A stretch of 49,415 bases of DNA from a virus. Numbering within the stretch: the first letter of the stretch is position 1; every line of letters begins with the position of its first letter. The stretch covers positions 1 through 49,415 of IMG/VR virus record IMGVR_UViG_3300042934_001053. One strand, given 5' to 3'. Made by a program: the position numbers and the translations under genes. The notes beneath the pieces are model-generated. The model saw only the letters and a program-made list of their open reading frames with translations. It was not told the DNA's origin and searched no databases. This document shows positions 2,886-49,415 of this stretch, one piece after another.

Positions 2886-2896
2886 ACAATCCCTCC

Positions 2897-3829: not shown

Positions 3830-3842
3830 TTATATCACCTCA

Positions 3843-7094: not shown

Positions 7095-7095
7095 A

Positions 7096-7497: not shown

Positions 7498-7505
7498 TAA
7501 ACCTC

Positions 7506-9212
7506 CTACATATTTGCTAATGCTAATTTAAGTTCTGGAACTAATTCATTTAATATCTGTCGTGGTGTCATATTGGTTCCATTGATATTCACTACTACTG
7601 TTGGTTTGTTATTATTAGTAGTTGAAATACTATTTCTTCTATTATGAGGATTTTCTGAAGCTCTTACGATGCCTTCGCCTTTATGCAGCTTAGCAGTATA
7701 ACCATCAAAAGGAACATAATCTAAACCACTATAGTGTCGCCCATCAACAGAGCCTTTACTTTGTGAAGAATCTAATTTCTTATTCAACCATCCTGCAATA
7801 GCTCCAGCTTTATCAGCAACCCATCCAAGAGCATCTCCTAGTTTACTTAGAATAGGCTCTACAACACTCCATACGCTTGATGTAATCTCTTTTACATATG
7901 GAAATGCTAGTTGAAATGCTGTAAATACCATCTGAGCTCCACTAGCGATAATACCCCATATAGGCTCTATAATAGGCATAGCTGCGGAAGTTACTGCCTT
8001 AACTGCGCTCCAGGAAGTATCCCACACATCTTTAAAGAAAGTAGCCTTACTAACTATCCAGTCAAACTTGCTGCCTATCTTTGACCAATTATCTCCTATA
8101 AGTTTTGCAAAATCTAAAGCCTTTGTTCCAACAGCGGATAAAACTCCACCAACCTTAGTTGAAAAACTATTGATTTTAGGACTATCTAAGATGTTTATTA
8201 TCCCTTGCAGTAATGGCTTAGATTTTTCAAGCATCCTAATTCCTGCATCTTGGGCCCTGGATGCTAATCTTCCTTTTATAGTTGAAACTAACCCTGATCC
8301 AGTTTGTGAAAGCTTGGCAGCTCCCCCTTCAAATTGAGACTTTAACCTGGTATCAACTATCCCTTTAAAGCCTAGCTTCTTAAATTCTTCAGCACTGACC
8401 TTGGCATTGAACTCCTTCAAACGCTCCATTTCGCCATTCTTGGCATCGGCTAAACTTTCCATTGCGTCTGAAACAGTCTTTCCTGGTGTTAATGCTGCCA
8501 TATCTTCAGCTATCTTTACAAGTTCCATTGCTTCCTTGGTATTTCCACCAGTGATTCCTAAAGCTCTAGTTCCTGCTCTTATAACTTCCTGTGATGTAAA
8601 AGGAGTAACATTAGAATTTTCTCTTAGGTCCTTAAGGAAGCTATCCCTAATTTGAGTTATCCCTGAAGCACTTTTACCTTTATTGTTAATGCCTATAAAA
8701 TGCCCCATGGATACTTGCTGCTTCTCAAGATCTGCTCCACTTTTGAGCATTCCAACACCGGCACCGCCAATTGCGACGCTGGCAGCCAGTGCTACTCCCG
8801 CTGCCGATTTAGCAAGACCTTTCATCTTGCTGCTTACACTTGAGATATTATCTTTAATTTTAATAACAGGAGAAAATACTCTTCTTCCCATGGATTTTAA
8901 TTCATTAACTGTTTTAGTGATTTTTCTGCTTGCCATGTCTTTTAAAGCCATAGCAGTAACTATCTTTTTCCTGAAAGGAGCCATAGCAGTTTTTAGCTTT
9001 GTCATTTCCTTATATGCTCTTGTTGCATCCAGCCTGGCTTCCATCTTCTTTTTAAAAGTTTTTTCTAGCTCTTTCCTTGTAGATGTAATATCCTTTTTAA
9101 AGGCAGATTGTTCTTTTCTAACTCCTCTTAATGTAGCGGACATATTGTCTTTAAGTGTGAGGACTGCACCTATAACATGTTTACCACCTGCCACAGTATC
9201 ACCTCCAAGCAA
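7506..9212 (-). CDS. Tape measure protein
   Basis: 568 aa, Ala/Gly/Lys-rich helical protein downstream of the chaperone pair. The start is uncertain: TTG at 9212, or GTG about 15 nt downstream behind GGAGGT. Confidence 0.8.
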   Translation of the reverse strand: MLGGDTVAGGKHVIGAVLTLKDNMSATLRGVRKEQSAFKKDITSTRKELEKTFKKKMEARLDATRAYKEMTKLKTAMAPFRKKIVTAMALKDMASRKITKTVNELKSMGRRVFSPVIKIKDNISSVSSKMKGLAKSAAGVALAASVAIGGAGVGMLKSGADLEKQQVSMGHFIGINNKGKSASGITQIRDSFLKDLRENSNVTPFTSQEVIRAGTRALGITGGNTKEAMELVKIAEDMAALTPGKTVSDAMESLADAKNGEMERLKEFNAKVSAEEFKKLGFKGIVDTRLKSQFEGGAAKLSQTGSGLVSTIKGRLASRAQDAGIRMLEKSKPLLQGIINILDSPKINSFSTKVGGVLSAVGTKALDFAKLIGDNWSKIGSKFDWIVSKATFFKDVWDTSWSAVKAVTSAAMPIIEPIWGIIASGAQMVFTAFQLAFPYVKEITSSVWSVVEPILSKLGDALGWVADKAGAIAGWLNKKLDSSQSKGSVDGRHYSGLDYVPFDGYTAKLHKGEGIVRASENPHNRRNSISTTNNNKPTVVVNINGTNMTPRQILNELVPELKLALANM

Positions 9213-32280: not shown

Positions 32281-32314
32281 ATAGTTATATCGAAGTATTA
32301 AGTAGGTGAAAGTA

Positions 32315-32734
32315 ATGTTTAATAGAAATAGGTTAATTGAAATTATGGAACAGAATGATGTAACAGCTTATAAATTGTGGAAACTTTCAGGAGTTGCACA
32401 GTCTACAATTAGTGATATCTTAAACAAGGATGATAAAAACCCTACAACCAAGACTCTTCAGAAAATAGCAGATGCCTTAGGAGTATCAATTGATGAATTT
32501 TTTAAAGATGATACTTTAGAAAAAACAGAAGATGCTAAACAAGACCTAGCTGCTTTTGAAGTTGTTCCAGAACAGTTTACTAATCCAGACGAAGCTAGAA
32601 CTTATGTAAAAAAACATAGGATATTTGCTTCTGAAGGCTTTAATGCGGATAAGCTTAGTGATGAGGAGATATTAAGTTTCGCGAATGCTTTATTGGAGCA
32701 GATGAGACTTGTAAGCTATAAGTATAAAAAATAG
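32315..32734 (+). CDS. XRE-family phage repressor (ImmR/CI-like, no S24 peptidase domain)
   Basis: HTH: TAYKLWKLSGVAQSTISDILNKDDKNPTTKTLQKIADALGVSIDEFF. The ATG at 32315 follows AGGTGA. It is followed by the ImmA gene. Confidence 0.8.
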   Translation: MFNRNRLIEIMEQNDVTAYKLWKLSGVAQSTISDILNKDDKNPTTKTLQKIADALGVSIDEFFKDDTLEKTEDAKQDLAAFEVVPEQFTNPDEARTYVKKHRIFASEGFNADKLSDEEILSFANALLEQMRLVSYKYKK

Positions 32735-34040: not shown

Positions 34041-35237
34041 ATGGCGGTAAAAATCAACTATTCTAAGAACGGAAATGATTATTTTAGAGTAACCACATCA
34101 GTTGGTCGAGATAGCAATGGTAAATTAATAAGAAAAGAATTCTATGGAAAGAGTAAAAAGGAAGCTGAAGCTAAGAAAGATGACTATCTTAATGGACTAA
34201 AGAATGGACTTTCTATAGATTACAAAACTATAGTTCTTGGAAAGCTAATGCACTCCTGGTTATTCGAAATACTTAGAGTATCTAGCCATATAAAGCCTTC
34301 AACATTCCAAAGATACGAGGGAATTTTCAGAAACTACATAGAAAATAGCAACTTATACGGTATCAAGTTAAATGATATAAAATCTATTCAGATACAAAGA
34401 TATTATAACGAGCTTTATGAAAGCGGTAAGACTTACAGTCAAATATATAATCTGAATAAACTCTTAAAAAGTCTTTTAAACTATGCAGTTGAGGAAGGAT
34501 ATATTCTTAAAAATCCATGCTCTAACAAGAGAATTGTTATACCTGGACAAAGTAAAATTAAATCTACGATTAATAATGAATATGATGAAGATAATGAAGT
34601 TGTGATATATAGTAATGATGAGATCAAATTACTTAAGGCCGATCTAGAAAACCATAGACTTAAGGCTGCTATTTTACTAGATTTAGGAACCGGATTAAGA
34701 CTAGGTGAACTATTGGCATTACAGTGGTCTGATATTGATTCTGATTATTCCGAGCTAAAAGTTCAGCGAACCATTAAGGAAGTAACAGTAATAGCTGCTG
34801 ATAGAAGTAAGCAATATAAAACACTTATTCAGCCTCCCAAAACTAAGAAAAGCATCAGAACTGTTCCTATTCCATCTAGTCTTGTTGATGTTTTGAAGGA
34901 ACATAGACAAAGACAAGAAAAAGAAAAGTCGGACGCTGGAACTTCATATATTGAAAGTGATTTTGTATTTACTACTGAGTTAGGTAAAAATATTGATTCT
35001 AATAATTTTAGGCGGAGCTATAAGCGGATTCTCACCAAAGCTGGAATAGAATATAAAAAATTTCATGCACTGAGACATACTTATGCTACAAAATTATTTG
35101 AAAGAGAAGTACCTTTAAAAACTGTATCAGAGTTATTAGGTCACTCAGATATATCAATAACAGCTAATATTTACACTCATGTTATGCCAGAGGTAAAAAT
35201 TACTGCTGCTGAAAAATTAAATCATTTATTCGAATAA
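34041..35237 (+). CDS. int: Tyrosine recombinase / phage integrase
   Basis: 398 aa with an arm-binding type N-terminus and a SAM-like core. The catalytic region is GLRLGELLAL...HALRHTYATKL...LGHSDISITANIYTHV. Confidence 0.9.
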   Translation: MAVKINYSKNGNDYFRVTTSVGRDSNGKLIRKEFYGKSKKEAEAKKDDYLNGLKNGLSIDYKTIVLGKLMHSWLFEILRVSSHIKPSTFQRYEGIFRNYIENSNLYGIKLNDIKSIQIQRYYNELYESGKTYSQIYNLNKLLKSLLNYAVEEGYILKNPCSNKRIVIPGQSKIKSTINNEYDEDNEVVIYSNDEIKLLKADLENHRLKAAILLDLGTGLRLGELLALQWSDIDSDYSELKVQRTIKEVTVIAADRSKQYKTLIQPPKTKKSIRTVPIPSSLVDVLKEHRQRQEKEKSDAGTSYIESDFVFTTELGKNIDSNNFRRSYKRILTKAGIEYKKFHALRHTYATKLFEREVPLKTVSELLGHSDISITANIYTHVMPEVKITAAEKLNHLFE

Positions 35238-35667: not shown

Positions 35668-37953
35668 TTACATTTTATCTATAGTATTTAAGATATAATC
35701 CATTTGATCATTTTCAATATTATAATTATCAATTAAATCTTCCCTTAGTCTCTTGTATTTATCTGTTAACTTCTCTATTTTATATAACTCTAATAGGACA
35801 ATTTTGTATTCATAATCCTCAGGGCTTTTGCAACAGAGTTCTTCTAATTTTTGTATTGCTATATCACAATTTCCAGATTCCTTAAATGCCAAAGCCTTAA
35901 GAAAAAGAGACCAATCATGATTTTTGTTAATAATAATTAAATCAGTACAACAATTATATATAAATTTAGTAAGATTTCCATACCCGTTTTTTTGTAATAT
36001 ATTTGACATAAAAAACGCTGCATCTATGAATCTATTATTACTTATTAAATTTGTTAGATCTTTAGCATCATCTTCATCAATTATAATTTTAAAATTATCA
36101 AATACTTTATTTATGTTATCATTAAGCTCATCCTTTAATAAAACATCATATGTTCTTTTTGAAAATTCTATATATGATGCTAATTTACTATCAAAATATA
36201 TTTCACTCAATAATCCTAAACATATTAGAACATTTTGTATACTGCATTTTGATTTATTTATGATAGACATAACAAATTGCATATATTCTAAGTTATAAAT
36301 AGCACCGCTTTTTTCCTTGGAATTTAAATATTTTAGCCCTTCTGATTTTAACTCAATACTGATGATAGCAAGCATAGAATAATAAACAAAATATAAATCA
36401 TCAATATATGCATTTTCTTTTAACAAAACAAATATATCATTATTTTTTGATAAAGTAATTTTACCAAAAGCATATATATAGTTCAATCTAATATGAGGAT
36501 CCTCTTTATTTTCTTCATATGTATTAATTAAGATATATAATAAACTTTTTGGACACCAAGTATATGATGCCATAAATAAACCAACAATTTTAATCTTTTC
36601 ATCTTGTGGTGTATCATCACTCATAAGCTTTTGATAAAAAAACTCATGGGATAATCTATAATCAATATAATCATATGATTTGTAGTTAGTTGATACTATT
36701 TCAGTAATTTGGATTTTTTTAACTATAGAAGAGTGTTGAAAAGTTTGTTTAAAATATTGTAACGATTCCTCAGTCCCTTGGCTTATATACTCTTCATAAT
36801 ATTTATCATAGTATTCTATACTGGAATAATCTACATTTACGTTAAAGCTAGTTGGAACACCATTATTGTCAAACGGTCTTTGAGTCTGATGTTCAACTGA
36901 TATAACATCATGAAGTACAGAGTTATTCATAAGATATTGTCTAAAAATAAGTTCATTTGAACAAATACTTTTAAACAGACTAGAAAACTTAGTGTATGTG
37001 TTTTCCAAGTCGTCTTGGGTACATTTATTAAGCATATCTAATATATCATTCAAATCTGCTGTTATATCTATATGACCACAGATTTTATTTCTTACATCTC
37101 TTAAAGACTGTATTTTTTCTTTATATTTATAGTTCTCTTTAAAATTCACTAGTATAGTATATGCCTTTTCAAATGATTTATTTTCCAGATATTTATTCTC
37201 TATAATTAAATCTAACCCATCCATCGCCTGTTTTGCATCTGCAGCAACATTCCTTGTAAACAAGGCATCAGAATAATTAATTAAATCGAGTATTAGCAAT
37301 TCCTTAAATAGATTTCTTATTAAAGAATTATTATCAATTTTTAAAATCCTTAATTCATAGTTAATAATAAGTTCTAAAGACTTTAGAATCCCAGCTCTTT
37401 CATGAAGTGGATGACCGGACAAAGCTGCCACCGTATTAGGACGAGTTAATGCAAGTACATCATTTGCAATTCTCGGTCTATTCTCTAAATCCATTACAGA
37501 TGATATAGATTCTACATCTTTTCCTATAGTACTTCCAATAATATGTAGGATGCTTGTAAAATCCTCATACCAAACTTCATTTTTAAACATATTATATATC
37601 TCGATGATACTTTTAATAAAAAAATCTATTTTATAGTATTCAATCTCGGACCATATATCAATTCTTGTTCCAAAATCCATTACTTTAAAATGCCCACCGA
37701 AACTGTTTCTTTGCTTGTACAAAAACTCTTTATACAGTTCCTCAAGCGCATTTAAACTTCCTTTTATTCTTTTTCTTCTACTTTTTTCATTTATATCTAT
37801 CTGATTATTAGCTTGTCTTGCAAGAGTAATAAATGCATCTAATCTGATCATTACAAATCTTGATAGAGCTCGTTTATAAAATCCACAGCTTTTTAACCTT
37901 AATAGTTGATCAAGTATGATAATTTCCTTAGTGCAATATTTTAACTTATCCAT
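35668..37953 (-). CDS. Large hypothetical protein with two HEPN-like RNxxxxH motifs and a C-terminal TPR-like helical region
   Basis: 761 aa. The motifs are KQRNSFGGHF (R82-H88) and VRNKICGHID (R288-H294). The C-terminal LKALAFKESGNCDIAIQKLEELCCKSPEDYEYKIVLLELYK looks TPR-like. Confidence 0.35.
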   Translation of the reverse strand: MDKLKYCTKEIIILDQLLRLKSCGFYKRALSRFVMIRLDAFITLARQANNQIDINEKSRRKRIKGSLNALEELYKEFLYKQRNSFGGHFKVMDFGTRIDIWSEIEYYKIDFFIKSIIEIYNMFKNEVWYEDFTSILHIIGSTIGKDVESISSVMDLENRPRIANDVLALTRPNTVAALSGHPLHERAGILKSLELIINYELRILKIDNNSLIRNLFKELLILDLINYSDALFTRNVAADAKQAMDGLDLIIENKYLENKSFEKAYTILVNFKENYKYKEKIQSLRDVRNKICGHIDITADLNDILDMLNKCTQDDLENTYTKFSSLFKSICSNELIFRQYLMNNSVLHDVISVEHQTQRPFDNNGVPTSFNVNVDYSSIEYYDKYYEEYISQGTEESLQYFKQTFQHSSIVKKIQITEIVSTNYKSYDYIDYRLSHEFFYQKLMSDDTPQDEKIKIVGLFMASYTWCPKSLLYILINTYEENKEDPHIRLNYIYAFGKITLSKNNDIFVLLKENAYIDDLYFVYYSMLAIISIELKSEGLKYLNSKEKSGAIYNLEYMQFVMSIINKSKCSIQNVLICLGLLSEIYFDSKLASYIEFSKRTYDVLLKDELNDNINKVFDNFKIIIDEDDAKDLTNLISNNRFIDAAFFMSNILQKNGYGNLTKFIYNCCTDLIIINKNHDWSLFLKALAFKESGNCDIAIQKLEELCCKSPEDYEYKIVLLELYKIEKLTDKYKRLREDLIDNYNIENDQMDYILNTIDKM

Positions 37954-38084
37954 TATATCACTTCCATTTATTTGTTATTATCCAATTGTACCCAAATTAA
38001 CTTTTCATATACCTATTATATCGCATATATATAAGTTCTTGTATTTCCATTGTTCTGAATTAACATTCCACTGAATAATGATTT

Positions 38085-38912
38085 TTATGGTTTCAAATAA
38101 TTTACCCCAAATATTTCTATATCTTTAAGTTGCCTTATGAAACTTTTCATATTTTTATAAAGTTCAGCTTGATAAACCTCAGTGATAACAGCATCTACAT
38201 AAGGTATAAAACAACTCATTTTAACATCCATAACATCATTTGGGTTGATTGATTTCTTCCTATCATAGATTTTCATAAATTGAGAATACTCCATTGCCCT
38301 AATTCCTGGCAATCTTTTTATGTCTAAGTCATTTATAATATCTATACCATGAACTCTAAGATCCTTTATAATAGTTTCCCTTTCTAATTTAAAGTATAGT
38401 TTTCTTAAATCGGATGGCTTTAACACATTAGATATACTGTAATAACTAGCTTTTGTGTCGTTCCATGTATTTGCTACTTCTTTAAGTCCAACAATTTCTA
38501 ATATGATATTATTTTTTATTACCTCGTTATTCCATAAATTTTCAAGAAACTTTTGTAATTCAAAACTGTCAGTCGGACCGAATGGAGAAAATGCATGAAT
38601 TATATTCCCATCGAGTACCACTTCTCTATTATTACAAAACGCATTATATTCCTCGTCAATAATTAGCTTATATGGAAGGAACATCATACATGGTATAATA
38701 GAAAAAATTTCTATGAATTTCTCATAAATGTCTTTATAAGGTTTCAGCTCAAAAACATTATATATAGAAAATACAGGTGCATATTTTAATGAATCTAGAT
38801 TTAAAAACTTATCTATAAAATTACTGAGACTCTGATTATTATTTAGCACTATTTCTCTGAGTGCATTAGTATCTAGATATACAAGTTTGTAGTCGTTACT
38901 ACCAATTTTCAT
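38085..38912 (-). CDS. Hypothetical protein with a PIN-like N-terminal motif
   Basis: 275 aa. It has KLVYLDTNALREIV near the N-terminus (a PIN beta1 D-T-N signature) and PYVDAVITE near the C-terminus. Confidence 0.3.
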   Translation of the reverse strand: MKIGSNDYKLVYLDTNALREIVLNNNQSLSNFIDKFLNLDSLKYAPVFSIYNVFELKPYKDIYEKFIEIFSIIPCMMFLPYKLIIDEEYNAFCNNREVVLDGNIIHAFSPFGPTDSFELQKFLENLWNNEVIKNNIILEIVGLKEVANTWNDTKASYYSISNVLKPSDLRKLYFKLERETIIKDLRVHGIDIINDLDIKRLPGIRAMEYSQFMKIYDRKKSINPNDVMDVKMSCFIPYVDAVITEVYQAELYKNMKSFIRQLKDIEIFGVNYLKP

Positions 38913-39049
38913 AATCTTACTCCTAAAACAGTAAAAAGTTTAATATATTTTCCAATATGCCTGCCACCTATGAACTGTACTCATAAAGATACTCATTGTA
39001 GCTCCCCCTTCGGTAGAACAAAAACGGATATATTTTATCTGATAACATT

Positions 39050-39793
39050 TTAAAAGTTATATTTGATAGGGTTTGCTGCTCCCTTCTTTCTATATTCCTT
39101 TGGAACTCTTTTACGTAAGTATATTTTTTTTATTGAATCATCGGCTTCATATCCAACGAATCCATACCTTTCTGGCCTATCTCCATTGAATTCGGGGAAA
39201 TTAGCTATAGTAGCAGATTTCCATTCAACTGGGATAAACACTCCTACAATGATACCTTGTTTAACTGCCAACACATAGTCTACTCTTTTTATTTTAGCTT
39301 TACTTAACTTCCATGCATATCTTGTTGCATCATAGATACTTCGTTCAGAAACAGATTTATTAATCGTAATCATGAGGACCTTATGCTCAAAAATAGCTTC
39401 TTGAGACATATATTTATTTATTATTTCTAAAGCATTCATAGGACCATACTCATTACTACCATGTCCACCCATTATGTTTGATACACCTGGATATGCATCA
39501 ATTAAAGCCGCTTCTACTTCTAATGCACATTTCTCATCCATCCCATGCCGGTGTATTACATGAATTACTTCTAAGCCAGCAACTATTATTTCTCTAATTA
39601 TTTGAATTTTATCATCAACTTCATCGAAGTTATCCATAGTAAGAGCACCTTTCATATGGTAAAAAACTCTATTTCCCTTACCTTTACCTATATAAAATGT
39701 TTCTCCATTTCTTGGATCTATAAGTCTATAAACATAATATTTTAATTCGTCAATTACCTCATTAGGAAACCTTTCCAATGCATTATTACTCAT
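39050..39793 (-). CDS. GIY-YIG nuclease-domain protein with an unassigned C-terminal domain
   Basis: YYVYRLIDPRNGETFYIGKGKGNRVFYH carries the GIY, YIG and Arg elements, with ALEVEAALIDAY downstream. 247 aa. Confidence 0.7.
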   Translation of the reverse strand: MSNNALERFPNEVIDELKYYVYRLIDPRNGETFYIGKGKGNRVFYHMKGALTMDNFDEVDDKIQIIREIIVAGLEVIHVIHRHGMDEKCALEVEAALIDAYPGVSNIMGGHGSNEYGPMNALEIINKYMSQEAIFEHKVLMITINKSVSERSIYDATRYAWKLSKAKIKRVDYVLAVKQGIIVGVFIPVEWKSATIANFPEFNGDRPERYGFVGYEADDSIKKIYLRKRVPKEYRKKGAANPIKYNF

Positions 39794-39939
39794 TATAAAC
39801 TCCTTTTCTAAATGTTTGTTAAAATATAGGCACTTAGAGCATTCTCCAGGCTATAACATTTAATTCTAATTAATTACTATTTATTCTAAACACTATTCGC
39901 AACATAGCTACCCTGAGCCATTTACTATATAAGATTATC

Positions 39940-40464
39940 CTAGGAATGAGTTAAATTAAAGAGTCTACTTAGAAGTTCGGAAGTATCTTTAATTTTCATA
40001 AATCTACTTTTAGGAATTTCACGGATAGAAGGTCTTTCTTTCTTTATTCCTAGAGAATTGCCTTTAGTATGTTTTGTTATTCTAAGATTATCTATGCCTG
40101 GTAATACTTCTCCTGGATTTCCTCCAAAAAATAAGTATTCTAAGCTAATTCTATTTTTTTCTTTATCAATATGCCTAGTCGTCCATACTACACATCCACT
40201 CGGTTTTTCAGCTAAGGCGACATTTATATTGACGGTAGATCTTTTTGCGCCTTCTATAGATGTCTTCAGTTGAATATGCCTTATAATTCCATTACACTCT
40301 AAAACTAAATCATAACCAGAACTATCTATTTCTGAGTGTAGTACTTCTATACATTGATTAAATTTAAACCATGCTTCTTGCAACACTTCTGAAATAAAAA
40401 CATGTTCAACTAACTGTTCATAAAAGTTTGACTTTACATAACTTTCTGTCTTTTCATCTACCAC
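39940..40464 (-). CDS. Small PD-(D/E)xK-like (DUF4365-like) protein
   Basis: 174 aa. HVFISEVL...EIDSSGYDLVLECNGIIRHIQLKTS has a D...(Q)xK arrangement. Confidence 0.35.
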   Translation of the reverse strand: MVDEKTESYVKSNFYEQLVEHVFISEVLQEAWFKFNQCIEVLHSEIDSSGYDLVLECNGIIRHIQLKTSIEGAKRSTVNINVALAEKPSGCVVWTTRHIDKEKNRISLEYLFFGGNPGEVLPGIDNLRITKHTKGNSLGIKKERPSIREIPKSRFMKIKDTSELLSRLFNLTHS

Positions 40465-40621
40465 TTTAATCTACCTCCACTTACTTAAACTGATTATAGT
40501 TTTCGTTTTTATAAAGTATCTCCTTGAAAGAAGATGATTTAATATAAAAAAATATTACCTTGTCTTACTTCGTAATATATCGAAATTTAGTACTTAAATA
40601 TTTACTTATATAAAATATACC

Positions 40622-40660
40622 ATGGTAATATATTCTACAAAATACTATAAATCCCTTCAA
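40622..40660 (-). promoter_or_regulatory. Accessory-cassette promoter box, copy A (TTGAAG-17-TAGAAT)
   Basis: 40622-40652 is identical (31/31) to 46570-46600. The -35 is at 40655-60 and the -10 at 40632-37 (minus strand). Confidence 0.5.
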
Positions 40661-40814
40661 GGTAACATAACCTATCAGATAATAACTACTAGCATTATCC
40701 AATTTTCTGATTTTCCTACTATTATATAGTTCTTCTATAGGTATTTTTACATTAAGTCATAGCTTTCTAATTATGTGCTATATTAAGTTCTACAAGATTC
40801 GTCTTACCATATAA

Positions 40815-40850
40815 AGAAAAGGAGCTTTATTTAAACTCCTTTTCTTTATT
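40815..40850. terminator. Weak bidirectional hairpin terminator
   Basis: AAGGAG-N11-CTCCTT is flanked by an A-run and a T-run. Confidence 0.35.
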
Positions 40851-41037
40851 TCTCAATTAACTCTTTTCAGTTTTTCTATATCAATACTAATAACTTCATT
40901 ATTTATACTAAGTGCAGCTCCCTCTTTTGCATTTGGATAATAAAATATACTAAATAACTACAACGTGCCCTTACAGAAATATAAGCAGTTCATATTTATT
41001 CTGCCAACATATTAATAAGCATAAAACCTTATGGTTT

Positions 41038-41640
41038 TTACTTTAGTGTATTAACTTTAACAAGATATGTATGTTCTTCAAGTAACCTTCTGTAATCACT
41101 TCTTAATAAATCTAATATTATTAATTCTTTTGTTTTTACATCATAATGCATAACATGCTCATCATTTTCTAAGTTAGCCTTATTTCTTAAGTTTGCTAGT
41201 ATACCAAATAAGCTTTCATGCCATTCTTTGTTATACTGAACCATACAACTTATTTTTAACTTATCTGAAATATTTTTGTCACCGTAAATGTTGTTGACTG
41301 CTTCATGTCTTCTACCATAAGCTTCCCCAAGCTGGTAGAATTCTTCAATCATGTCCATTGTTATATGTATTCTATATAATTCTTTACAATTTAGTTCTAC
41401 CATTTCTAAATCCTCCAGTACATCTTGTTTTATAACTTTTAGTGTTCTTGGCATAGTCTCGTCCCAGGTAATATACCCTTTTTTCTTTAACCGGCGTAAG
41501 TATCCATGTGTTGTAGAGCTAGATTTTAAGCCAACTAACTTCGTGAGCTCTCTTACTGACGGAGCTATCCTATTTTTATTTATGTATATATTTATCATTT
41601 GCAGCAACTCTTGTTGCTTCTTCGTTAGCTTTTCTCTCAT
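41038..41640 (-). CDS. LexA-type winged-helix DNA-binding domain protein lacking the S24 peptidase domain
   Basis: LTKKQQELLQMINIYINKNRIAPSVRELTKLVGLKSSSTTHGYLRRLKKKGYI fits LexA_DNA_bind. The C-terminal 120 aa are unassigned. Confidence 0.65.
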   Translation of the reverse strand: MREKLTKKQQELLQMINIYINKNRIAPSVRELTKLVGLKSSSTTHGYLRRLKKKGYITWDETMPRTLKVIKQDVLEDLEMVELNCKELYRIHITMDMIEEFYQLGEAYGRRHEAVNNIYGDKNISDKLKISCMVQYNKEWHESLFGILANLRNKANLENDEHVMHYDVKTKELIILDLLRSDYRRLLEEHTYLVKVNTLK

Positions 41641-41657
41641 TTCCCCAATCCCCTCGT

Positions 41658-41924
41658 TTACATCTTAAATAGCATCCATTTGCATGTTCGTAATTCATAC
41701 TTAAGTTCATAAATCCGTTTAGCACCATTAATAGTACTTTCACATTTTATAACTAGCATCTCATTTCCTGCTAATTTTTCCTTATCTATAGTCAGCATTC
41801 TATTAACTTTAATAACCATTTCACTTTCATCATCAGTTGTAACTTTAAATCTAACAGGATGAGGTATTCCAGTTTTTTCGAACCAACACACCATATCAAT
41901 CGGCTTTGCAATTATCTTCATCAT
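41658..41924 (-). CDS. Small hypothetical protein, first gene of the LexA-like operon
   Basis: About 88 aa from the ATG at 41924 behind GGAAGGTG (the track ORF runs to 41936). Its stop lies 18 nt from the next start. Confidence 0.5.
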   Translation of the reverse strand: MMKIIAKPIDMVCWFEKTGIPHPVRFKVTTDDESEMVIKVNRMLTIDKEKLAGNEMLVIKCESTINGAKRIYELKYELRTCKWMLFKM

Positions 41925-41955
41925 GACACCTTCCAAATATATGTTTGTATGGCTT

Positions 41956-41984
41956 ATTATATCAGAACATTAGTTCGTGTTCAA
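41956..41984 (-). promoter_or_regulatory. Promoter TTGAAC-17-TATAAT with an embedded Cheo-type LexA box (GAAC-N4-GTTC)
   Basis: Minus strand: TTGAACACGAACTAATGTTCTGATATAAT. The box is at 41965-41976. Confidence 0.65.
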
Positions 41985-42014
41985 GAAAAAAAATAAAAAG
42001 GAGCCTAAACTCCT
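41985..42014 (-). terminator. Terminator after the 198-aa membrane protein gene
   Basis: Minus strand: AGGAG-TTTAGG-CTCCT followed by TTTTTATTTTTTTT. It is a near-copy of the hairpin at 19934-51. Confidence 0.45.
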
Positions 42015-42052
42015 AGAACTTATTAAAACTAATAATATTATTTAATACAATA

Positions 42053-42649
42053 TTAATTATTCCTTTTCTGAATTGTATAGGTGTTGAAACCACCTTCTGG
42101 TGCATCGTTAAAATAAGTTTCTCCAGTTTCTTTTACATTCATAGCATATGTTATTCCGCCTCCACCATCTTTCACACCTTTAATCTCTAACTTACCTTTA
42201 GCTGGTACTATAAAACTTTTTACACCATGACTTATCATGAAAGGTTCTCCATAAGTCTTATCATCATGAATTAGTTGAACATAGTCACCATCTATTGCTG
42301 CAAAATCCCAAATACTAATATTAACTTCACTGGTCTTCGAATCCAGAATTATTTCTTGATTTCTCTGTTCGATTTTCTTGTCCTTATCAAATAATACTGC
42401 TCCTGGATAACTATCTTTTGAGATACCTGAGTTTATTATTTGCTGTACAGCTACACTAGGTTTAGATAATAGAAGTAATAATAAAATACAGCCTATAACT
42501 TCCAACACTAAAAAGATAGAAGCAATAGCAGCTATAACCTTAAACATTGATTTAGTCTTCCTCATAATAAATATTAGCAAACAAATTAACGCTCCAGACA
42601 ATCCTATCTTTAAGAATGTAACTACTATGTTATAGAATGAATTAAACAC
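42053..42649 (-). CDS. Hypothetical membrane protein (2 TM segments plus an extracytoplasmic domain)
   Basis: 198 aa. The TM stretches are VTFLKIGLSGALICLLIFIM and VIAAIASIFLVLEVIGCILLLLLL. Confidence 0.55.
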   Translation of the reverse strand: MFNSFYNIVVTFLKIGLSGALICLLIFIMRKTKSMFKVIAAIASIFLVLEVIGCILLLLLLSKPSVAVQQIINSGISKDSYPGAVLFDKDKKIEQRNQEIILDSKTSEVNISIWDFAAIDGDYVQLIHDDKTYGEPFMISHGVKSFIVPAKGKLEIKGVKDGGGGITYAMNVKETGETYFNDAPEGGFNTYTIQKRNN

Positions 42650-42765
42650 ACATATCAGTCCTTTAATCTATTTAACAGAATTTAATTTTCTAAAATCATA
42701 AATATTTCAGAAATGATGAATGACTTCGCTTTATTAACAAAGTCTTTATCAACTTAAACACTATA

Positions 42766-42838
42766 TTTTTACAATATTCTACACAATATAAAAAAATCCT
42801 TCAAAATAATAAAAAAGTCAGAAGGATTTCTCACACTT
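42766..42838 (-). promoter_or_regulatory. Accessory-cassette box, copy D (diverged): TTGAAG-17-TAGAAT plus a degenerate hairpin
   Basis: The -35 is at 42799-804 and the -10 at 42776-81 (minus strand). AAAAAAGTCAGAAGGATTTCTC resembles AAAAAGCCTAGAAGGATTTCTC. Confidence 0.4.
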
Positions 42839-42933
42839 GGAACTGTTACTTAATTATTCAGGAAAATTCTCATACTATTATATTTATCTTATGTTTTATC
42901 CTAGATTAATATATTTCAAAACGAAGTTTCAAT

Positions 42934-43749
42934 TTACTTTTCAAAAATATACCCTGATAATTTGTATATATTATCATAAGAATTTCTAACTATAATTCTA
43001 GCATCCACACATCTTTCGTCCTGTGGATTCCATTTGACTCCATTCCTATACTTTTGTATAACATCTCGCACAGATAGACACGAATTACTGTTGTTGATGA
43101 GGTCATATATAAATTCAAATGAGTTTCCTGTTTTATATGCTACATATTCGATAATTGTCCGGTCAATACCACTTACTTTATGAAATGCTGAAATGACGCC
43201 ATCTAGTAAGGCTTTCTGTATATTAACTATGTTAACTTCTTCTTTCTCGGGTTTTAAAATTTCAATATATATCCCAAATTCTCCCTCATAATCGCTTTTA
43301 TTAATAGTTACGCTATCTGATTTTTTTAAAGCAATCCAATAGTCAAGTGGCTTTTTTGAAGTACTTGGTTTATCGATAGCAACATTACTCCATTCAGCGA
43401 TGATATTAGTTCTGTTATCCTCTATTGAATCTATAAAACTGTACTGATGAAAATATCTGAAATCTTGCTGTTCAGAAGTCCTTTCTAATGAAAAACATAC
43501 ACCTTTAGTATCAAGTCTTTTGAAATTAGATGTGCCTACATTATAAAATAAAATATTCTCAACATCAAAAAACTCAACTTCGTTAGTCTGTAATTTGGCT
43601 ACAAGATATTGTTTTTGCGGAGTTAATCCCCTTAAAGCATTTACTAGGTCATTCTTTAGTTTTTTTCTCCAATCCTTTGGTTCAAGACTTAATCGTTTCT
43701 GGGTCTTTACAGTTAATAAATTATCTTCTTTTATAATTTCATACTGCAT
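42934..43749 (-). CDS. Hypothetical protein
   Basis: 271-aa ORF. No family was recognised. Confidence 0.55.
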   Translation of the reverse strand: MQYEIIKEDNLLTVKTQKRLSLEPKDWRKKLKNDLVNALRGLTPQKQYLVAKLQTNEVEFFDVENILFYNVGTSNFKRLDTKGVCFSLERTSEQQDFRYFHQYSFIDSIEDNRTNIIAEWSNVAIDKPSTSKKPLDYWIALKKSDSVTINKSDYEGEFGIYIEILKPEKEEVNIVNIQKALLDGVISAFHKVSGIDRTIIEYVAYKTGNSFEFIYDLINNSNSCLSVRDVIQKYRNGVKWNPQDERCVDARIIVRNSYDNIYKLSGYIFEK

Positions 43750-44145: not shown

Positions 44146-45012
44146 TTAGATTTCAAATACTACTGTTCCAGAAGTAACTTCAATAATGATAAATTTATTT
44201 TTGTTTCTGATTAGTTTAAAATCGACTTCATGATCATTTATATGTAATTTTTCTTTCAATTCTAGTTTTATTAAATCAATATTTTTCACTATCTCTTTTT
44301 CTGCCTCATGTAGTATTGTTAATAAATCATCAGCTTTAATAGTATGATTAATATTTGTTCTTGCTGAAGTGAGTCCCCCACCAATTGGAGTAAATACTTT
44401 CCCATTAACCTCATAAAGAACATATGCTCCGCCTTTTCTTAATTGTTCTATTTCTTTATCACTAGGCTTATGAACACTCATAACATCTTTTAACTGATAT
44501 GGCTCCATCATTTCAGGCCAGTTTCTTTCAAAAATCTGCAATAATTCCTGTTTTGCAAATATACTCTTCGTCTTATGCTTTTGGACATCTATAAAATATA
44601 CGTCATTATCATATACCTTCACAAATAATAAATAGTCTGATCTCTCCATGAAGAAGTTTCCCTTAGAATCTTTCTTATTACTTAAATGTAGATGATGTAT
44701 TCCCCAATCATCTAAAAGATAATCTAGAAAATCCGCATCTAGTATATTTCTGCTTAAGTAAGGATTAACATCTTCCCCTTTTGTAAACTTTGATTCAATT
44801 TCGTTTAATATTCTTAAGAGGTCACCTTCAATTTTTAAGAGTTTAACACAATCTGTCTTGTGTACGTTTCTAGGTCTTATCGGTATCAATTTGTTACCAA
44901 TATTATAATATTGAACTAAAATCTTATGGATATTGCCAGTTTCATCATATTTTATCCCAAGGCTTTTCATTTGACTTACAACTTCACTTCTTAAATCTTC
45001 AAATAAATTCAT
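44146..45012 (-). CDS. Hypothetical protein
   Basis: 288-aa ORF with RBS GAAGGAAGG. No family was recognised. Confidence 0.6.
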   Translation of the reverse strand: MNLFEDLRSEVVSQMKSLGIKYDETGNIHKILVQYYNIGNKLIPIRPRNVHKTDCVKLLKIEGDLLRILNEIESKFTKGEDVNPYLSRNILDADFLDYLLDDWGIHHLHLSNKKDSKGNFFMERSDYLLFVKVYDNDVYFIDVQKHKTKSIFAKQELLQIFERNWPEMMEPYQLKDVMSVHKPSDKEIEQLRKGGAYVLYEVNGKVFTPIGGGLTSARTNINHTIKADDLLTILHEAEKEIVKNIDLIKLELKEKLHINDHEVDFKLIRNKNKFIIIEVTSGTVVFEI

Positions 45013-45218: not shown

Positions 45219-46403
45219 TCAAAGCTTAAAATATTCTATTAGGAACCTTCTGAAAATAAATCCCCCAACATCTCTTAGCATAAGAAGATTAATATATGGT
45301 AGTTGCATTATTACACCTATATCAGATTTAGATAATTGCGGATTACTTACCCCACCATAATATGACCTATTACTAAAAAACTCGCCAGAATGCACATATG
45401 CACTTCTCTTTTTGTAATAATCATCAATTATTCCTTTATCCATATATCCTTCTGAATAATTTTCAATAAGTTTTATAACTTTTTGCCTTATAGAAAAGAT
45501 ATTCTGGTTACAACTTTCACATCTTGAGTCGTTTGAATCCATTATGCTCGCCAACACTTCAAATGAAGACATATACAACATATTGGCTACTTCTTCAAAA
45601 GATAATCCATATTCCACTTGTTTAAAATCATAATTATCGTAATCATATATAAAACTTGTATACTTAGTTGCTGTATGAAAAAGTCTACATGCATCTATAT
45701 ATTTCTCAAATTCATCATCGTGTTGCTGACTAATAATTTTATCAATAGCTTCAACACTTTTTTCCATTACTTTAATTCTATTATTAATTATAGGATAGGT
45801 ATCAACCCAGTTTTCGCTTGCAAAATTGTTATAATCGTTTATTTCTGGTAAGGCTTTAACATTATCTGTTTGAAAAATCACATGGCTAATCTGAGTCGAT
45901 AAGAAATCTATAACCTTACCATTTATCTTTGCTAATTCACTGCCCACATCTTTTTTGTCAAAGCCGTTTATTGCAAAAATAATTGAAAACTCATTATCAT
46001 AATTTATTATCCTAAAATTCTTACCACAGTAGTTGTCAATTCCTTCACCAATTGTTTTATAAGCCATTCTTAAGTATACAGTACTAATATCCTTTTTATA
46101 GTTTTTGGCCGCATCAACTATTGTAATGAGCATCTCATAGTCTCTATTTACATCTCCATTAGAATCTTGTGGTTCAAAAATTAGCTTCTTAATACAGCCT
46201 CGTATTTCATATTTTATTTTGACATAATACAAACCAGATAAGACATTAGTTGATACAAACCCTAAACTTATTATTTTATTTTTTGCATCTTTATATGGCG
46301 TAAAATTCCAGCCCATCTGCCCATCATTTCTCAGTTTTGTCCATAAAGCTCTTAGAAACATATTTGATTCTTCAACTGTAGTATAATTAATATCAAATTC
46401 CAT
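45219..46403 (-). CDS. Hypothetical protein with a C-terminal HEPN-like RSxxxH motif (Apea-like)
   Basis: 394 aa from the ATG at 46403 behind AGGAG (the track ORF uses the GTG at 46436). A CESC pair is followed by YYKKRSAYVHSGEF (Rx4H). Confidence 0.4.
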   Translation of the reverse strand: MEFDINYTTVEESNMFLRALWTKLRNDGQMGWNFTPYKDAKNKIISLGFVSTNVLSGLYYVKIKYEIRGCIKKLIFEPQDSNGDVNRDYEMLITIVDAAKNYKKDISTVYLRMAYKTIGEGIDNYCGKNFRIINYDNEFSIIFAINGFDKKDVGSELAKINGKVIDFLSTQISHVIFQTDNVKALPEINDYNNFASENWVDTYPIINNRIKVMEKSVEAIDKIISQQHDDEFEKYIDACRLFHTATKYTSFIYDYDNYDFKQVEYGLSFEEVANMLYMSSFEVLASIMDSNDSRCESCNQNIFSIRQKVIKLIENYSEGYMDKGIIDDYYKKRSAYVHSGEFFSNRSYYGGVSNPQLSKSDIGVIMQLPYINLLMLRDVGGFIFRRFLIEYFKL

Positions 46404-46471
46404 CTTCGTCTCCTGTTCTACTAATACGATTTTCACAGATTAATTGATGATTTCTCTTAACATTAAAAATT

Positions 46472-46517
46472 TCCGAATTATATTTCGGATTATAACGAAA
46501 TGTAGTAGTATTTCCAA
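46472..46517 (-). promoter_or_regulatory. Promoter TTGGAA-17-TATAAT followed by the inverted repeat TCCGAA-N6-TTCGGA
   Basis: The -35 is at 46512-17 and the -10 at 46489-94 (minus strand). The inverted repeat at 46472-89 overlaps the -10/+1 region. Confidence 0.55.
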
Positions 46518-46549
46518 CGTTTATATCGGAAAATATCTCTGTAGATGTT

Positions 46550-46647
46550 TTTTACACTATAATATTCCTATGGTAATATATTCTACAAAATACTATAAAT
46601 TCCTCTAAAAACTCAAAAAAGCCTAGAAGGATTTCTCTCTCTAGGCT
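46550..46647 (-). promoter_or_regulatory. Accessory-cassette box, copy B: hairpin terminator (46620-47) plus TTTAGA-18-TAGAAT
   Basis: AGCCTAGA...TCTAGGCT is followed by a T-run on the minus strand. The -35 is at 46604-09 and the -10 at 46580-85. TTTTTACACT is shared with copy C. Confidence 0.5.
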
Positions 46648-46704: not shown

Positions 46705-46713
46705 TGGTATAAT
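46705..46713 (+). promoter_or_regulatory. Extended -10 promoter TGGTATAAT for the 100-aa plus-strand gene
   Basis: It lies 47 nt upstream of the ATG at 46760. The gene's RBS is AGGAGG. Confidence 0.5.
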
Positions 46714-46759: not shown

Positions 46760-47062
46760 ATGGATCCAATAGTAATTGAAGGTTTAAAAGCAATTAAAAA
46801 TCGTATTAATATGTCAACAGGATTTGTGCATCCTGATGATAAGGCAAGCGTTATAGAGCTTTTAAAAAAGCTTAATGATGCAGGACATATTTTAGTCCCT
46901 TCACAAATAACAAGTTGGGCTTTACAAAATGGATTTCAACCTAAATATGCTCAAGAGCTAGAAGGATTTGCAGCAGGTGTAATTTCTGGTAAGAAATATA
47001 AAATCGGAAAGAATCACTGGAATGAGAATATTATAAAAGTATTAGAAGAAAGATCTAAATAA
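46760..47062 (+). CDS. Hypothetical protein
   Basis: 100-aa ORF with a strong RBS (TAGGAGGCAG) and its own promoter and terminator. Confidence 0.6.
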   Translation: MDPIVIEGLKAIKNRINMSTGFVHPDDKASVIELLKKLNDAGHILVPSQITSWALQNGFQPKYAQELEGFAAGVISGKKYKIGKNHWNENIIKVLEERSK

Positions 47063-47095
47063 TCAATAATCATTTAAACCTACTTAACTCTCTGT

Positions 47096-47132
47096 TCAGC
47101 TTGGCTTTAAATATATTTTCAAGCCAAGCTGA
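47096..47132. terminator. Bidirectional terminator between convergent genes
   Basis: There is a 12-bp stem, TCAGCTTGGCTT / AAGCCAAGCTGA, with a 13-nt loop. Confidence 0.65.
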
Positions 47133-47168
47133 GTGAATTTATTGTTTAATGTAGGTGAAGTTTGCGCT

Positions 47169-48086: not shown

Positions 48087-48124
48087 TTATATCTACTCCT
48101 TTTTTGTTTATTGCTAGTTAGGTT

Positions 48125-48222
48125 TTTTTACACTTTGCTATTTCTCTAGTAATATATTCTACGAGGCGCTGTAAATTCCTCTAAAATACAAAAAGCCTAG
48201 ACGGATTTCTCCATCTAGGCTT
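48125..48222 (-). promoter_or_regulatory. Accessory-cassette box, copy C: lysis-operon terminator (48193-222) plus TTTAGA-18-TAGAAT
   Basis: AAGCCTAGA...TCTAGGCTT lies directly after the endolysin stop. The -35 is at 48180-85 and the -10 at 48156-61 (minus strand). Confidence 0.55.
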
Positions 48223-48226
48223 ACCA

Positions 48227-49000
48227 TTAAAAATTCCTAATATAATCTGCATTAGCAAATATTTGATATTCCTCTATTCTTCTGTTTAACAACCCTTGTA
48301 AAATCTTTCCTCCAGCTTTTGACCATGCTGCAAAATTATCTTTTAGACTGCTATCTCTTACTCCTGCAAGAATTCTGCTGTAAAGTGTACTTCCTAAAAG
48401 ACCACCTACTCCACAGTTGTATGCAAAAGAACATAGAGCATCAAATTGGTTTTGAGTTAATACAACACCTTTACTATCTAAGCTTGTCTTTATTTTCTTT
48501 GCCATACCATTAATCTCTTCCTTCAGAAATTGTGTTGCCTGAACTTCTGTTATCTCTCCTAGTGCAACATATTCTTTCTTTGTAGTGCCATAGCCTATCG
48601 TTTTTACTCCTGCAGGATCAATATATGAAGTTGCACGAAAGCCCTCATAGTGCTTTACAAAATCAACTAGCTTATCAGAAACTAAGCTAGTGTTTTCTAT
48701 TAATGCACCATCTGCACTAAAGCTATAAGACTTTCCATCTATAACAGAGATGCAATTTGCAATCATCACTCCATCTTTACCTAAATAGAACCGCTTGTTG
48801 TTATCCTGTAGCCAGCCAACTTTCATTACTCCGTTGTTGTCAAGGTAATACCATTTGTCATTCTCTTTTAGCCATCCAGTAACCATAGTTCCATTAGAAT
48901 TTAAATAGTACCACTTTCCTTCAACTTGCTGCCACCCAGTTAAAAGAATGCCTGAAGTCTCATCTTCGAGACACCATTTCCATTTAGCCATATTATTCAC
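48227..49000 (-). CDS. Endolysin: N-terminal CW_binding_1 repeats plus a C-terminal GH24 phage lysozyme domain
   Basis: The repeats are GWQQVEGKWYYLNSNGTMVTGWLKENDKWYYLDNNGVMKVGWLQDNNKRFYLGKDGVM. The lysozyme motif is HYEGFRATSYIDPAGVKTIGYGTT. Confidence 0.85.
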   Translation of the reverse strand: MNNMAKWKWCLEDETSGILLTGWQQVEGKWYYLNSNGTMVTGWLKENDKWYYLDNNGVMKVGWLQDNNKRFYLGKDGVMIANCISVIDGKSYSFSADGALIENTSLVSDKLVDFVKHYEGFRATSYIDPAGVKTIGYGTTKKEYVALGEITEVQATQFLKEEINGMAKKIKTSLDSKGVVLTQNQFDALCSFAYNCGVGGLLGSTLYSRILAGVRDSSLKDNFAAWSKAGGKILQGLLNRRIEEYQIFANADYIRNF

Positions 49001-49033: not shown

Positions 49034-49415
49034 CTAATCTGTTGGATTGCTTTTACTCTTAAGTTGTGTCAAAACAGTTACTAATTTATCTGGAACGGGC
49101 AAACCCATCTTTGCTGCATTCTCAATTAAACTAACGCCCTCATTTGCTATGTAAAAATAACATACAAGAGTACGGAATACCCATGAACCATTATTTAAGA
49201 GTCTATCTAGTGATACTGCAACAATTAGGACAACTAAGATAGTAAATTTCTTTAACAGACCTTTAAAGCCTATACTAGAGCTTAAAGTTTTGTTCATAAC
49301 TCCACCGAGGAATCCAGTAATATAATCAAGGACCATGAAAAGAATAAGCACCCCTAGAGCTGTATCCCATGCTCCAAAGATAAAGGTGAACCATGTCCCA
49401 ACTAATGCTGCTATT
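49034..49415 (-). CDS. Holin (Phage_holin_4_1 / TIGR01593-like), truncated by the window end; the N-terminus is at 1..150
   Basis: MVLDYITGFLGG...SSSIGFKGLLKK...YFYIANEGVSLIENAAKMGLPVP is typical of this holin family. The ORF stays open to 49415. Confidence 0.85.
   Translation of the reverse strand, partial: IAALVGTWFTFIFGAWDTALGVLILFMVLDYITGFLGGVMNKTLSSSIGFKGLLKKFTILVVLIVAVSLDRLLNNGSWVFRTLVCYFYIANEGVSLIENAAKMGLPVPDKLVTVLTQLKSKSNPTD
49289..49415. repeat. Second copy of the 127-bp terminal repeat
   Basis: Same sequence as 1..127. Confidence 0.95.

Follow-up and report, generated by a model that had tools for sequence, protein, structure and literature searches.

The stretch of DNA analysed here (the window) comprises positions 1 to 49,415 of IMG/VR virus record IMGVR_UViG_3300042934_001053 and belongs to a temperate Clostridia-like phage. 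The subject of this analysis is a minus-strand gene close to its right-hand end, which encodes a 394-amino-acid (aa) protein with a putative HEPN ribonuclease domain. On the minus strand, the right-hand end of the window carries a holin gene (49034-49351), then a lysin gene (48227-49000), and then an accessory block of 13 kb. Beyond this block, on the plus strand, are the genes for an integrase (34041-35237) and a CI-like repressor (32306-32734). The accessory block, located between the lysis genes and the integrase gene, has a GC content of 28.9%, compared with 33.6% in the structural genes. The 394-aa gene exists inside this block, directly upstream of a clear homologue of the anti-phage defence protein PD-T4-7 (44146-45012, minus strand, PADLOC E = 2e-80). 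The features of the gene and of its upstream region are listed in Table 1.

Table 1. Features of the 394-aa gene and its upstream region (window coordinates)
Feature	Position	Strand	Basis or remark
Coding sequence, 394-aa protein	45219..46403	minus	start ATG at 46403; stop codon 45219-45221; homologues align full length
Ribosome-binding site AGGAG	46410..46414	minus	6 nt ahead of ATG
N-terminal alpha/beta domain, about residues 1-180	45864..46403	minus	AF2 model, conservation, weak match to ApeA Mid domain
C-terminal helical HEPN-like domain, residues 205-394	45222..45791	minus	AF2, Foldseek, hhalign to ApeA HEPN domain
E282 codon, motif S-A-L-E-V-L	45558..45560	minus	sole fully invariant residue (137/137)
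C295-E-S-C298, CxxC knuckle on beta-hairpin inserted in helical domain	45510..45521	minus	136/137 representatives
R333-S-A-Y-V-H338, putative HEPN catalytic motif, then G340	45390..45407	minus	conservation, hhalign
Promoter P1: -35 TTGGAA (46517-46512), 17-nt spacer, -10 TATAAT (46494-46489)	46489..46517	minus	10/12 consensus positions
O1, perfect dyad TCCGAA-N6-TTCGGA over -10/+1 region	46472..46489	unstranded	pattern scan
O2, imperfect O1 copy over -35 box, core TCCGAT-N6-GTTGGA (minus-strand reading)	46510..46535	unstranded	19/26 vs O1
P2, promoter-like box TTTAGA-18-TAGAAT	46580..46609	minus	9/12 consensus; copy ahead of 305-aa gene
Intrinsic terminator hairpin (about -15.5 kcal/mol) and T-run	46619..46647	minus	near-identical copy at 48193-48221

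The 394-aa gene proposed by an earlier sequence-only reading of the window is confirmed as an open reading frame at 45219-46403 on the minus strand. The mechanical open reading frame is longer (405 aa) since it starts from a GTG 11 codons ahead of the ATG, and for this reason the residues numbered R344 and H349 in that reading are R333 and H338 of the 394-aa protein. The two motifs it had pointed out, CESC (C295-E-S-C298) and DDYYKK-RSAYVH-SGEF, are both found in the protein, and the Rx4H motif (R333 to H338) is located at nucleotides 45390-45407 as claimed.

A word-indexed homologue search with the 394-aa protein recovered five relatives of 29-69% identity, and the same type of search with a 114-sequence profile added just three further proteins. 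The exhaustive profile search, on the other hand, identified at least 428 clusters (50% identity) at E <= 0.001, 167 of them at E <= 1e-30. Almost all members are about 380-430 aa long (mostly about 390 aa) and are aligned end to end. They keep to one arrangement of two domains and are distributed among Clostridia, Negativicutes, Bacillus, cyanobacteria, and metagenomes.

Conservation was counted in 137 full-length family representatives. E282 is present in all of them, while C295, C298, R333, S334, and H338 are each found in 136, as is N14. Slightly more variable are G48, Y330, and P355 (135 each) and G340 and S279 (133 each). The arginine and the histidine, whose conservation had been proposed as a check on the Rx4H motif, are thus near-invariant across the family, and a conserved Rx4-6H motif, the hallmark of the HEPN superfamily, exists in the 394-aa family. 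In the N-terminal part a helix motif, E-S-N-x-F-L-R-x-L-W (N14, L17, W21), is conserved together with W32, G48, Y65, and F-D149-x-x-D152-A. The aromatic residues W21, W32, Y65, and F76 are kept in at least 78% of the representatives, and F148 and W199 are invariant among six close homologues. Because they are conserved across the 137 representatives, the Rx4H, CxxC, and E-S-N-x-F-L-R-x-L-W motifs can be regarded as the signatures of the family. An intramolecular zinc ribbon was considered and rejected since only one CxxC is conserved and the remaining Cys/His columns reach 58% at most. The lone CxxC probably binds a structural metal, which is possibly shared between subunits.

The full-length model built with AlphaFold2 (AF2; pLDDT 81, pTM 0.80) consists of an alpha/beta N-terminal domain and a helical C-terminal domain (about residues 214-392). 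When it was used as a Foldseek query, just weak START/KA1-like matches were obtained, and these were to the N-terminal domain; nothing was found against the viral library BFVD. The C-terminal domain was also modelled separately with 114 sequences, and with confidence (pLDDT 94, pTM 0.88). In this model R333 to H338 are located at the end of helix 323-339, which is terminated by G340, and the CxxC is found on a beta-hairpin inserted between helices. HEPN proteins are seven of the eight top PDB matches of the C-domain model (HepT 5yep, 8xdj, 8xeh, 7bxo, and 6m6u; 4nqf), and lower in the list there are three more (7ae9, Csm6 8jbb, and HI0074 1jog). This ranking, obtained with a predicted structure, is suggestive of a HEPN fold. 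RnlA/LsoA-like toxins, in which TBP-like N-domains are joined to HEPN, were also considered; neither sequence nor fold matched.

ApeA is reportedly a single-gene defence system, described by Gao and colleagues in 2020. This tRNA anticodon nuclease assembles into decamers or dodecamers, and 5'-phosphorylated deoxydinucleotides switch it on by binding in a pocket that is located between the N and HEPN domains (10.64898/2026.01.26.701840). It has three domains, N (1-198), Mid (199-309), and HEPN_ApeA (335-583), and its authors identified HepT as the closest minimal fold of the HEPN domain (10.64898/2026.01.26.701840). For comparison with the 394-aa family, Ec2-type and Ec1 genes were taken from E. 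coli genomes and a 122-sequence ApeA alignment was used. Note that the annotation of these genes is uneven. The Ec2-type gene of E. coli JNQH497 (retrieved locus 2501-4252), which exists in a P2-like prophage with baseplate genes on one side and tail/lysis genes on the other, is annotated just as 'hypothetical protein', and the Ec1-type gene as 'HEPN family anti-phage protein ApeA'.

When aligned by hhalign, the C-domain of the family matches the ApeA HEPN domain with P = 0.0027, and R333/H338 fall onto the catalytic R502/H507 (family 'Y-x2-R-S-K-Y-L-H-x-G' on 'IYRTRNLIVHTG' of ApeA). The N-domain of the family matches the ApeA Mid domain with P = 0.00047, placing 'V-x-a-F-D-x-x-D-A...' on 'V-K-A-L-D-P-F-T-A-R...' (about 249-285 of Ec2ApeA). 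All ten controls, cross-domain and reversed, gave P >= 0.028. The same Mid-domain register was obtained independently when Ec1 and Ec2 were compared as single sequences. A forward-versus-reversed comparison with HMMER moved the scores of just these two co-linear pairs, by about +1 bit (p about 1e-4, with non-independent sequences). Upstream of the catalytic helix both proteins have an A-L-E-x-L helix, in which, read by eye, E271-x10-E282 of the family ('E-I-A-N-x-L-Y-M-S-A-L-E-V-L') parallels E360-x10-E371 of ApeA ('E-N-Q-L-L-N-L-W-I-A-L-E-S-L').

The 394-aa protein resembles ApeA in several ways. As in ApeA, its C-terminal part would be a diverged HEPN domain, with Y-x2-R-[N/S]-x3-H-x-G on the putative catalytic helix. 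The preceding domain weakly and co-linearly matches ApeA Mid, HepT is the nearest minimal HEPN fold of both proteins, and both are encoded by stand-alone genes on mobile elements or in defence islands. These comparisons of sequence profiles suggest that the 394-aa protein probably works like, and is distantly related to, the ApeA-type HEPN proteins. The two are not alike in architecture. ApeA is about 580-600 aa long (structures 9HXI and others), whereas the window protein is about 190 aa shorter, and the three-domain arrangement of ApeA (N, Mid, and HEPN_ApeA in about 580 mainly helical aa) is not matched by it. The helical N-terminal domain of ApeA provides half of the ligand pocket and is without counterpart in the window protein, whose own N-terminal domain is alpha/beta and not mainly helical. 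The CxxC is invariant in the window family, whereas the zinc sites of ApeA are not conserved.

A number of results weigh against both the HEPN assignment and the relationship to ApeA. No significant model for the 394-aa protein was found in Pfam, NCBIfam, PADLOC, or PHROGs, and the majority consensus of the family had no match in the curated model libraries. For Pfam HEPN_Apea (PF18739) in particular, neither the protein (at E <= 10) nor the family consensus had a match. PADLOC, which lists a Cas13-ApeA model, and NCBIfam gave no matches to the protein, the stand-alone ApeA models in these libraries not having been checked; presumably the NCBIfam copy, also unchecked, holds an ApeA model, since PGAP uses the ApeA name. 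Searches of PDB sequences with the 394-aa protein and with the 137-sequence profile returned nothing significant, and the family profile did not match the ApeA chains although the PDB sequence set contains them. The fold matches of the C-domain are not significant (E >= 1, probability <= 0.63, TM 0.35-0.54), and no ApeA chain is among the matches listed. The hhalign probabilities of the two pairs, 11% for C-domain/HEPN and 32% for N-domain/Mid, are low, and the ApeA N domain finds no counterpart in the 394-aa protein (hhalign P = 0.18-0.36). Finally, the residue following the catalytic arginine is S in the family and N in both E. coli ApeA proteins examined (RTRNLIVH and KVRNKITH).

The proposal of the sequence-only reading that this is an Apea-type HEPN protein can therefore be kept in one respect and not in another. 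The motif does align with the catalytic R/H of ApeA, but the protein fails gathering-threshold membership of Pfam HEPN_Apea, and it is not an ApeA or HEPN_Apea member by any curated criterion. Among 114 relatives, sub-threshold HEPN_Apea matches are found in three (best E = 0.015), and PADLOC gave one match, to Cas13-ApeA (E = 0.0017), and none for the 394-aa protein itself. The 69%-identical Vallitalea protein is labelled 'Apea-like HEPN domain-containing' in UniRef, which is the name given by the source and not a test. The check for a HEPN fold came out in a similar way: HepT HEPN toxins are indeed the nearest solved folds, though at non-significant E-values. No match to the 394-aa protein was found by tblastn in 50,697 GenBank phage records, and no literature on the family was found.

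One may ask whether the protein is an RNase or a HEPN protein at all. It could have another activity (e.g., as a metal-dependent nuclease or hydrolase, or as a regulator binding a ligand or nucleic acid), in which case the likeness to HEPN would be convergent and helical only. The absence of any significant fold match or above-threshold HEPN family model is consistent with this, just about 41 columns align with the ApeA HEPN domain, and the invariant E282 and the CxxC are not canonical HEPN features. HEPN proteins nevertheless dominate the top of the fold list, Y-x2-R-[SN]-x3-H-x-G is in register with the catalytic helix of ApeA with negative controls, and E-x10-E / A-L-E-x-L resembles, by eye, the ApeA helix E360..E371 ('LWIALESL'). 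We consider such a non-HEPN protein quite unlikely. The HEPN reading is favoured despite the negative results with curated models, because of the fold ranking of the C-domain and of the ApeA profile alignment, whose controls stayed at noise level.

Other HEPN systems are similar to the window protein in some respects. HepT/MntA (5YEP, 7AE8/7AE9, 8XDJ) provides the nearest solved folds of the C-domain and carries Rx4H. HepT toxins, however, are only about 130 aa long and are neutralised via AMPylation by the adjacent MNT antitoxin, whereas the window gene is without a partner and its product has a large N-terminal domain and insertions in the HEPN core (the CxxC hairpin and a long loop after G340). 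A domain combination described as 'ApeA-NTD1 + HEPN(Apea)' (prototype PCC7424_5050) similarly has a strand-containing, aromatic-rich N-domain fused to an Apea-type HEPN domain (PMC3710099). ApeA-NTD1 is about 300 aa long and mostly beta (Anantharaman et al. 2013, PMC3710099), while the N-domain of the window family, compared with it by description only, is about 180-200 aa and mixed alpha/beta. HepS, encoded by prophage Gifsy-1, is a HEPN abortive-infection protein and an anticodon nuclease that is inactive until a phage cue; its constitutive expression yields an inactive tetramer (PMC13043305). HepS and the window protein are both prophage-encoded single-protein HEPN systems (the latter by prediction) in an accessory region. 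With < 250 aa and no additional domain, however, HepS is of the minimal HEPN type, and no sequence relationship to the window protein was detected. DARNA (PD-T7-3) was considered as well; it has the opposite domain order, with HEPN at the N-terminus (10.64898/2026.02.22.705581).

In the search for related loci with a 6-sequence alignment, four genomic loci and one viral locus were found. Several homologues exist next to genes of known defence or mobile-element families. Their neighbourhoods include a type I restriction-modification system with HEPN_RiboL-PSP and a Cap4-nuclease/AAA gene; an AAA_23 ATPase with a transposase; an SMC-like ATPase with DUF2971 and Schlafen AlbA_2; and, at a separate locus, a ClpB-like AAA protein with an integrase. 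Homologues are also carried on plasmid backbones in Clostridium argentinense, Calothrix, and Bacillus toyonensis. In IMG/VR UViG 2791355218_000003 (1-1191, 6380-8093), a 33%-identical homologue is found about 5-6.5 kb from a GH25/M23 endolysin gene and a holin gene, repeating the lysis-adjacent placement seen in the window; a SRAP (SOS-response-associated peptidase) gene adjoins this homologue. When the flanks of ten loci were compared all against all, no conserved neighbour or partner gene was identified. Because no neighbour is shared, the 394-aa gene is taken as a stand-alone module. Recurrence beside defence genes or on mobile elements with no fixed partner, as expected of defence-island genes, is therefore observed, in a small sample of about ten loci and with no enrichment statistic.

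A HEPN toxin could also serve to stabilise the mobile element, in the manner of addiction or toxin-antitoxin systems, or to exclude competitors, with repression at the operator-like sites O1 and O2 (see below) replacing the antitoxin. The carriage of homologues by plasmids and prophages, the operator-like promoter of this copy, and the HEPN toxins of toxin-antitoxin systems as nearest folds would fit such a role. No antitoxin gene is conserved next to the gene in the ten loci, though, several of the homologue contexts are defence islands, and a large N-terminal domain conserved in this way is typically seen in sensor-effector defence proteins. In addition, none of the other loci has the dyads, implying that transcriptional control is not a property of the family. 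A role in stabilisation or exclusion is considered very unlikely.

On balance, the explanation that we favour, with modest confidence, is that the 394-aa gene is a stand-alone gene of the prophage and that its product is a ribonuclease of the HEPN type serving abortive infection or defence. This protein would be a distant relative of ApeA, having a sensor domain of a new kind at its N-terminus and a CxxC metal site, and its promoter would carry two operator-like sites for a repressor. The C-terminal helical domain would be a diverged HEPN domain, and in a dimer R333/H338 of the two subunits would together form a composite active site. Synthesised in the lysogen, the enzyme would stay inactive until the conserved N-terminal alpha/beta domain senses a cue of infection and releases its RNase activity. 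Judging from ApeA, HepS, and DARNA (PD-T7-3), the most likely targets of cleavage would be the anticodon loops of tRNAs, with an arrest of translation and of phage growth as the result. O1 and O2 would be operators of a dimeric repressor specific to the phage or to the host, setting the timing of transcription.

The control elements reported earlier upstream of the gene are present: the near-consensus promoter TTGGAA-17-TATAAT (P1; 46517-46489, minus strand), the inverted repeat overlapping it (O1, whose first T is the last base of the -10 box), and the second promoter box further upstream (P2, 46609-46580). The third half-site, TCGGAA, exists as well (46526-46531, plus strand), but it is actually one arm of the imperfect dyad O2. 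In the direction of transcription the order is terminator, P2, O2 over the -35 box of P1, the -10 box of P1, O1, a leader of about 65-80 nucleotides, and the ribosome-binding site. The terminator insulates the 394-aa gene from upstream transcription. O2, a unit of 26 nucleotides, starts 41 bp from O1. The pattern of O1 is unique in the window at up to two mismatches, and none of about 3000 random 95-nucleotide chunks of the window matches O1 as well as O2 does. The two-site arrangement of O1 and O2 exceeds chance. The dyads were not found upstream of the homologues at any locus examined, nor O1 beyond chance level elsewhere in the window, immunity region included. Since all homologues examined lack them upstream, O1 and O2 are a feature of this phage's copy and not of the family.

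Instead of being a protein operator, O1 alone could still be an inverted repeat that arose by chance, or it could act in the RNA, as a hairpin attenuating the transcripts from P2. As a point against an operator, the consensus scan flagged O1 as a weak terminator-like hairpin, in which AATTTTTAAT comes after a stem of 6 bp. Irrespective of composition, perfect 6+6 inverted repeats are frequent in the AT-rich window (2.7 per kb), O1 has no assigned regulator, and homologues do not conserve it. A requirement of at least three G/C per arm, however, makes such repeats rare, at 0.30 per kb, and the hairpin is weak (-6.6 kcal/mol). P1 transcripts would not contain it, because a start about 7 nucleotides after the -10 box falls inside the repeat. 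The related O2 exactly over the -35 box, unequalled in the control chunks, is also very unlikely by chance. We hold a chance repeat or attenuator to be possible, if rather unlikely, and continue to treat O1 and O2 as putative operators.

P2 and the terminator are part of a direct repeat of about 100 bp, the two copies of which (46546-46647 and 48120-48221, minus strand) are about 75% identical judging from conserved-column marks. Each copy includes the terminator hairpin, the TTTAGA-18-TAGAAT box, and a leader. One copy is found after the lysin gene, ahead of a 305-aa gene, and the other precedes P1, O1, and O2. The pair brackets the 305-aa gene and a gene of the DUF1889 family; therefore the repeat suggests a module junction, formed by cassette insertion or recombination. 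Between these two convergent genes is a hairpin with an 11-bp stem, CAGCTTGGCTT...AAGCCAAGCTG (47095-47137), which is probably a bidirectional terminator.

In the sequence-only reading, the promoter had been taken as a sign of tight repression, as expected for a toxic effector. This expectation finds no backing in precedent: HepS is a constitutive, inactive oligomer (PMC13043305), and ApeA is controlled post-translationally, by ligand binding (10.64898/2026.01.26.701840). The same reading had nominated the divergent 100-aa gene as the regulator. The gene (46760-47062) belongs to Pfam DUF1889 (E = 2e-6). It has its own extended -10 promoter, TGGTATAAT (46705-46713), about 200 bp away and beyond the terminator. 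This candidacy is not supported, given that no DNA-binding family is matched, that a terminator separates the promoters, and that the gene is absent from all other loci.

The accessory block contains another candidate, a 200-aa protein with a LexA DNA-binding domain (41038-41640; Pfam 4e-19; PHROG 'transcriptional repressor'). It forms a minus-strand operon (41038-41980) with a 92-aa gene, and within the operon promoter, TTGAAC-17-TATAAT, there is a perfect SOS box of the Gram-positive type, ACGAACTAATGTTCTG (GAAC-N4-GTTC). The protein has no match to the S24 peptidase family in Pfam and no peptidase-like C-terminal region was seen in its sequence. It is thus probable, as far as sequence can tell, that the phage encodes an SOS-induced, non-cleavable LexA-like regulator. 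By eye, CGAA...TTCG of O1 is in the same register about the centre as the Gram-positive SOS box CGAAC-N4-GTTCG, with the inner C/G missing.

That either the DUF1889 protein or this LexA-domain paralogue is the regulator binding O1 and O2 seems unlikely. The DUF1889 protein is suggested by adjacency alone, and the only PDB relative of this protein, which matches no DNA-binding family, is the uncharacterised protein 2es9; separation from P1 by the terminator and absence from other loci also speak against it. For the LexA paralogue, the winged-helix domain, the location in the same accessory block, the SOS-box promoter, and the register of the O1 core are suggestive. Yet O1 is without the inner C/G that defines the GAAC-N4-GTTC box, and there is no O1-like site near the paralogue's own gene beyond chance level. 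A host factor binding O1 and O2 is equally possible.

Downstream, the 207-bp spacer between the 394-aa gene and the PD-T4-7 homologue contains a promoter-like sequence, TTGAAT-16-TATAAA. The rest of the accessory block (35668-43749, minus strand) encodes proteins of 761 aa (weak HEPN_AbiU2 match, E = 0.004), 247 aa (GIY-YIG), and 174 aa (weak PD-(D/E)XK match), as well as three of 275, 271, and 198 aa without assignment. This region is a dense cluster of candidate defence or nuclease genes.

A further scheme, which is a long shot, would join these elements. The family could be a compact, unrecognised sister of ApeA, in which the Mid and HEPN core is kept, a new alpha/beta sensor replaces the N domain of the ligand pocket, and the CxxC serves as an inter-subunit zinc clasp. 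In this phage the SOS-induced, non-cleavable LexA-domain paralogue would gate transcription at O1 and O2, so that the prophage switches its own suicide RNase off (or on) when entering the lytic cycle and avoids targeting itself.

If the favoured explanation of the gene as a HEPN defence protein is validated, the 394-aa protein would represent a HEPN defence family that acts through single genes, is widespread (at least 428 clusters), and is missed by current defence-annotation tools. It would also be a natural minimal relative of ApeA, of use in telling the parts of ApeA needed for sensing from those needed for catalysis. The operator-like promoter of this phage's copy offers a tractable case for studying how a prophage controls a potentially self-harming abortive-infection gene.

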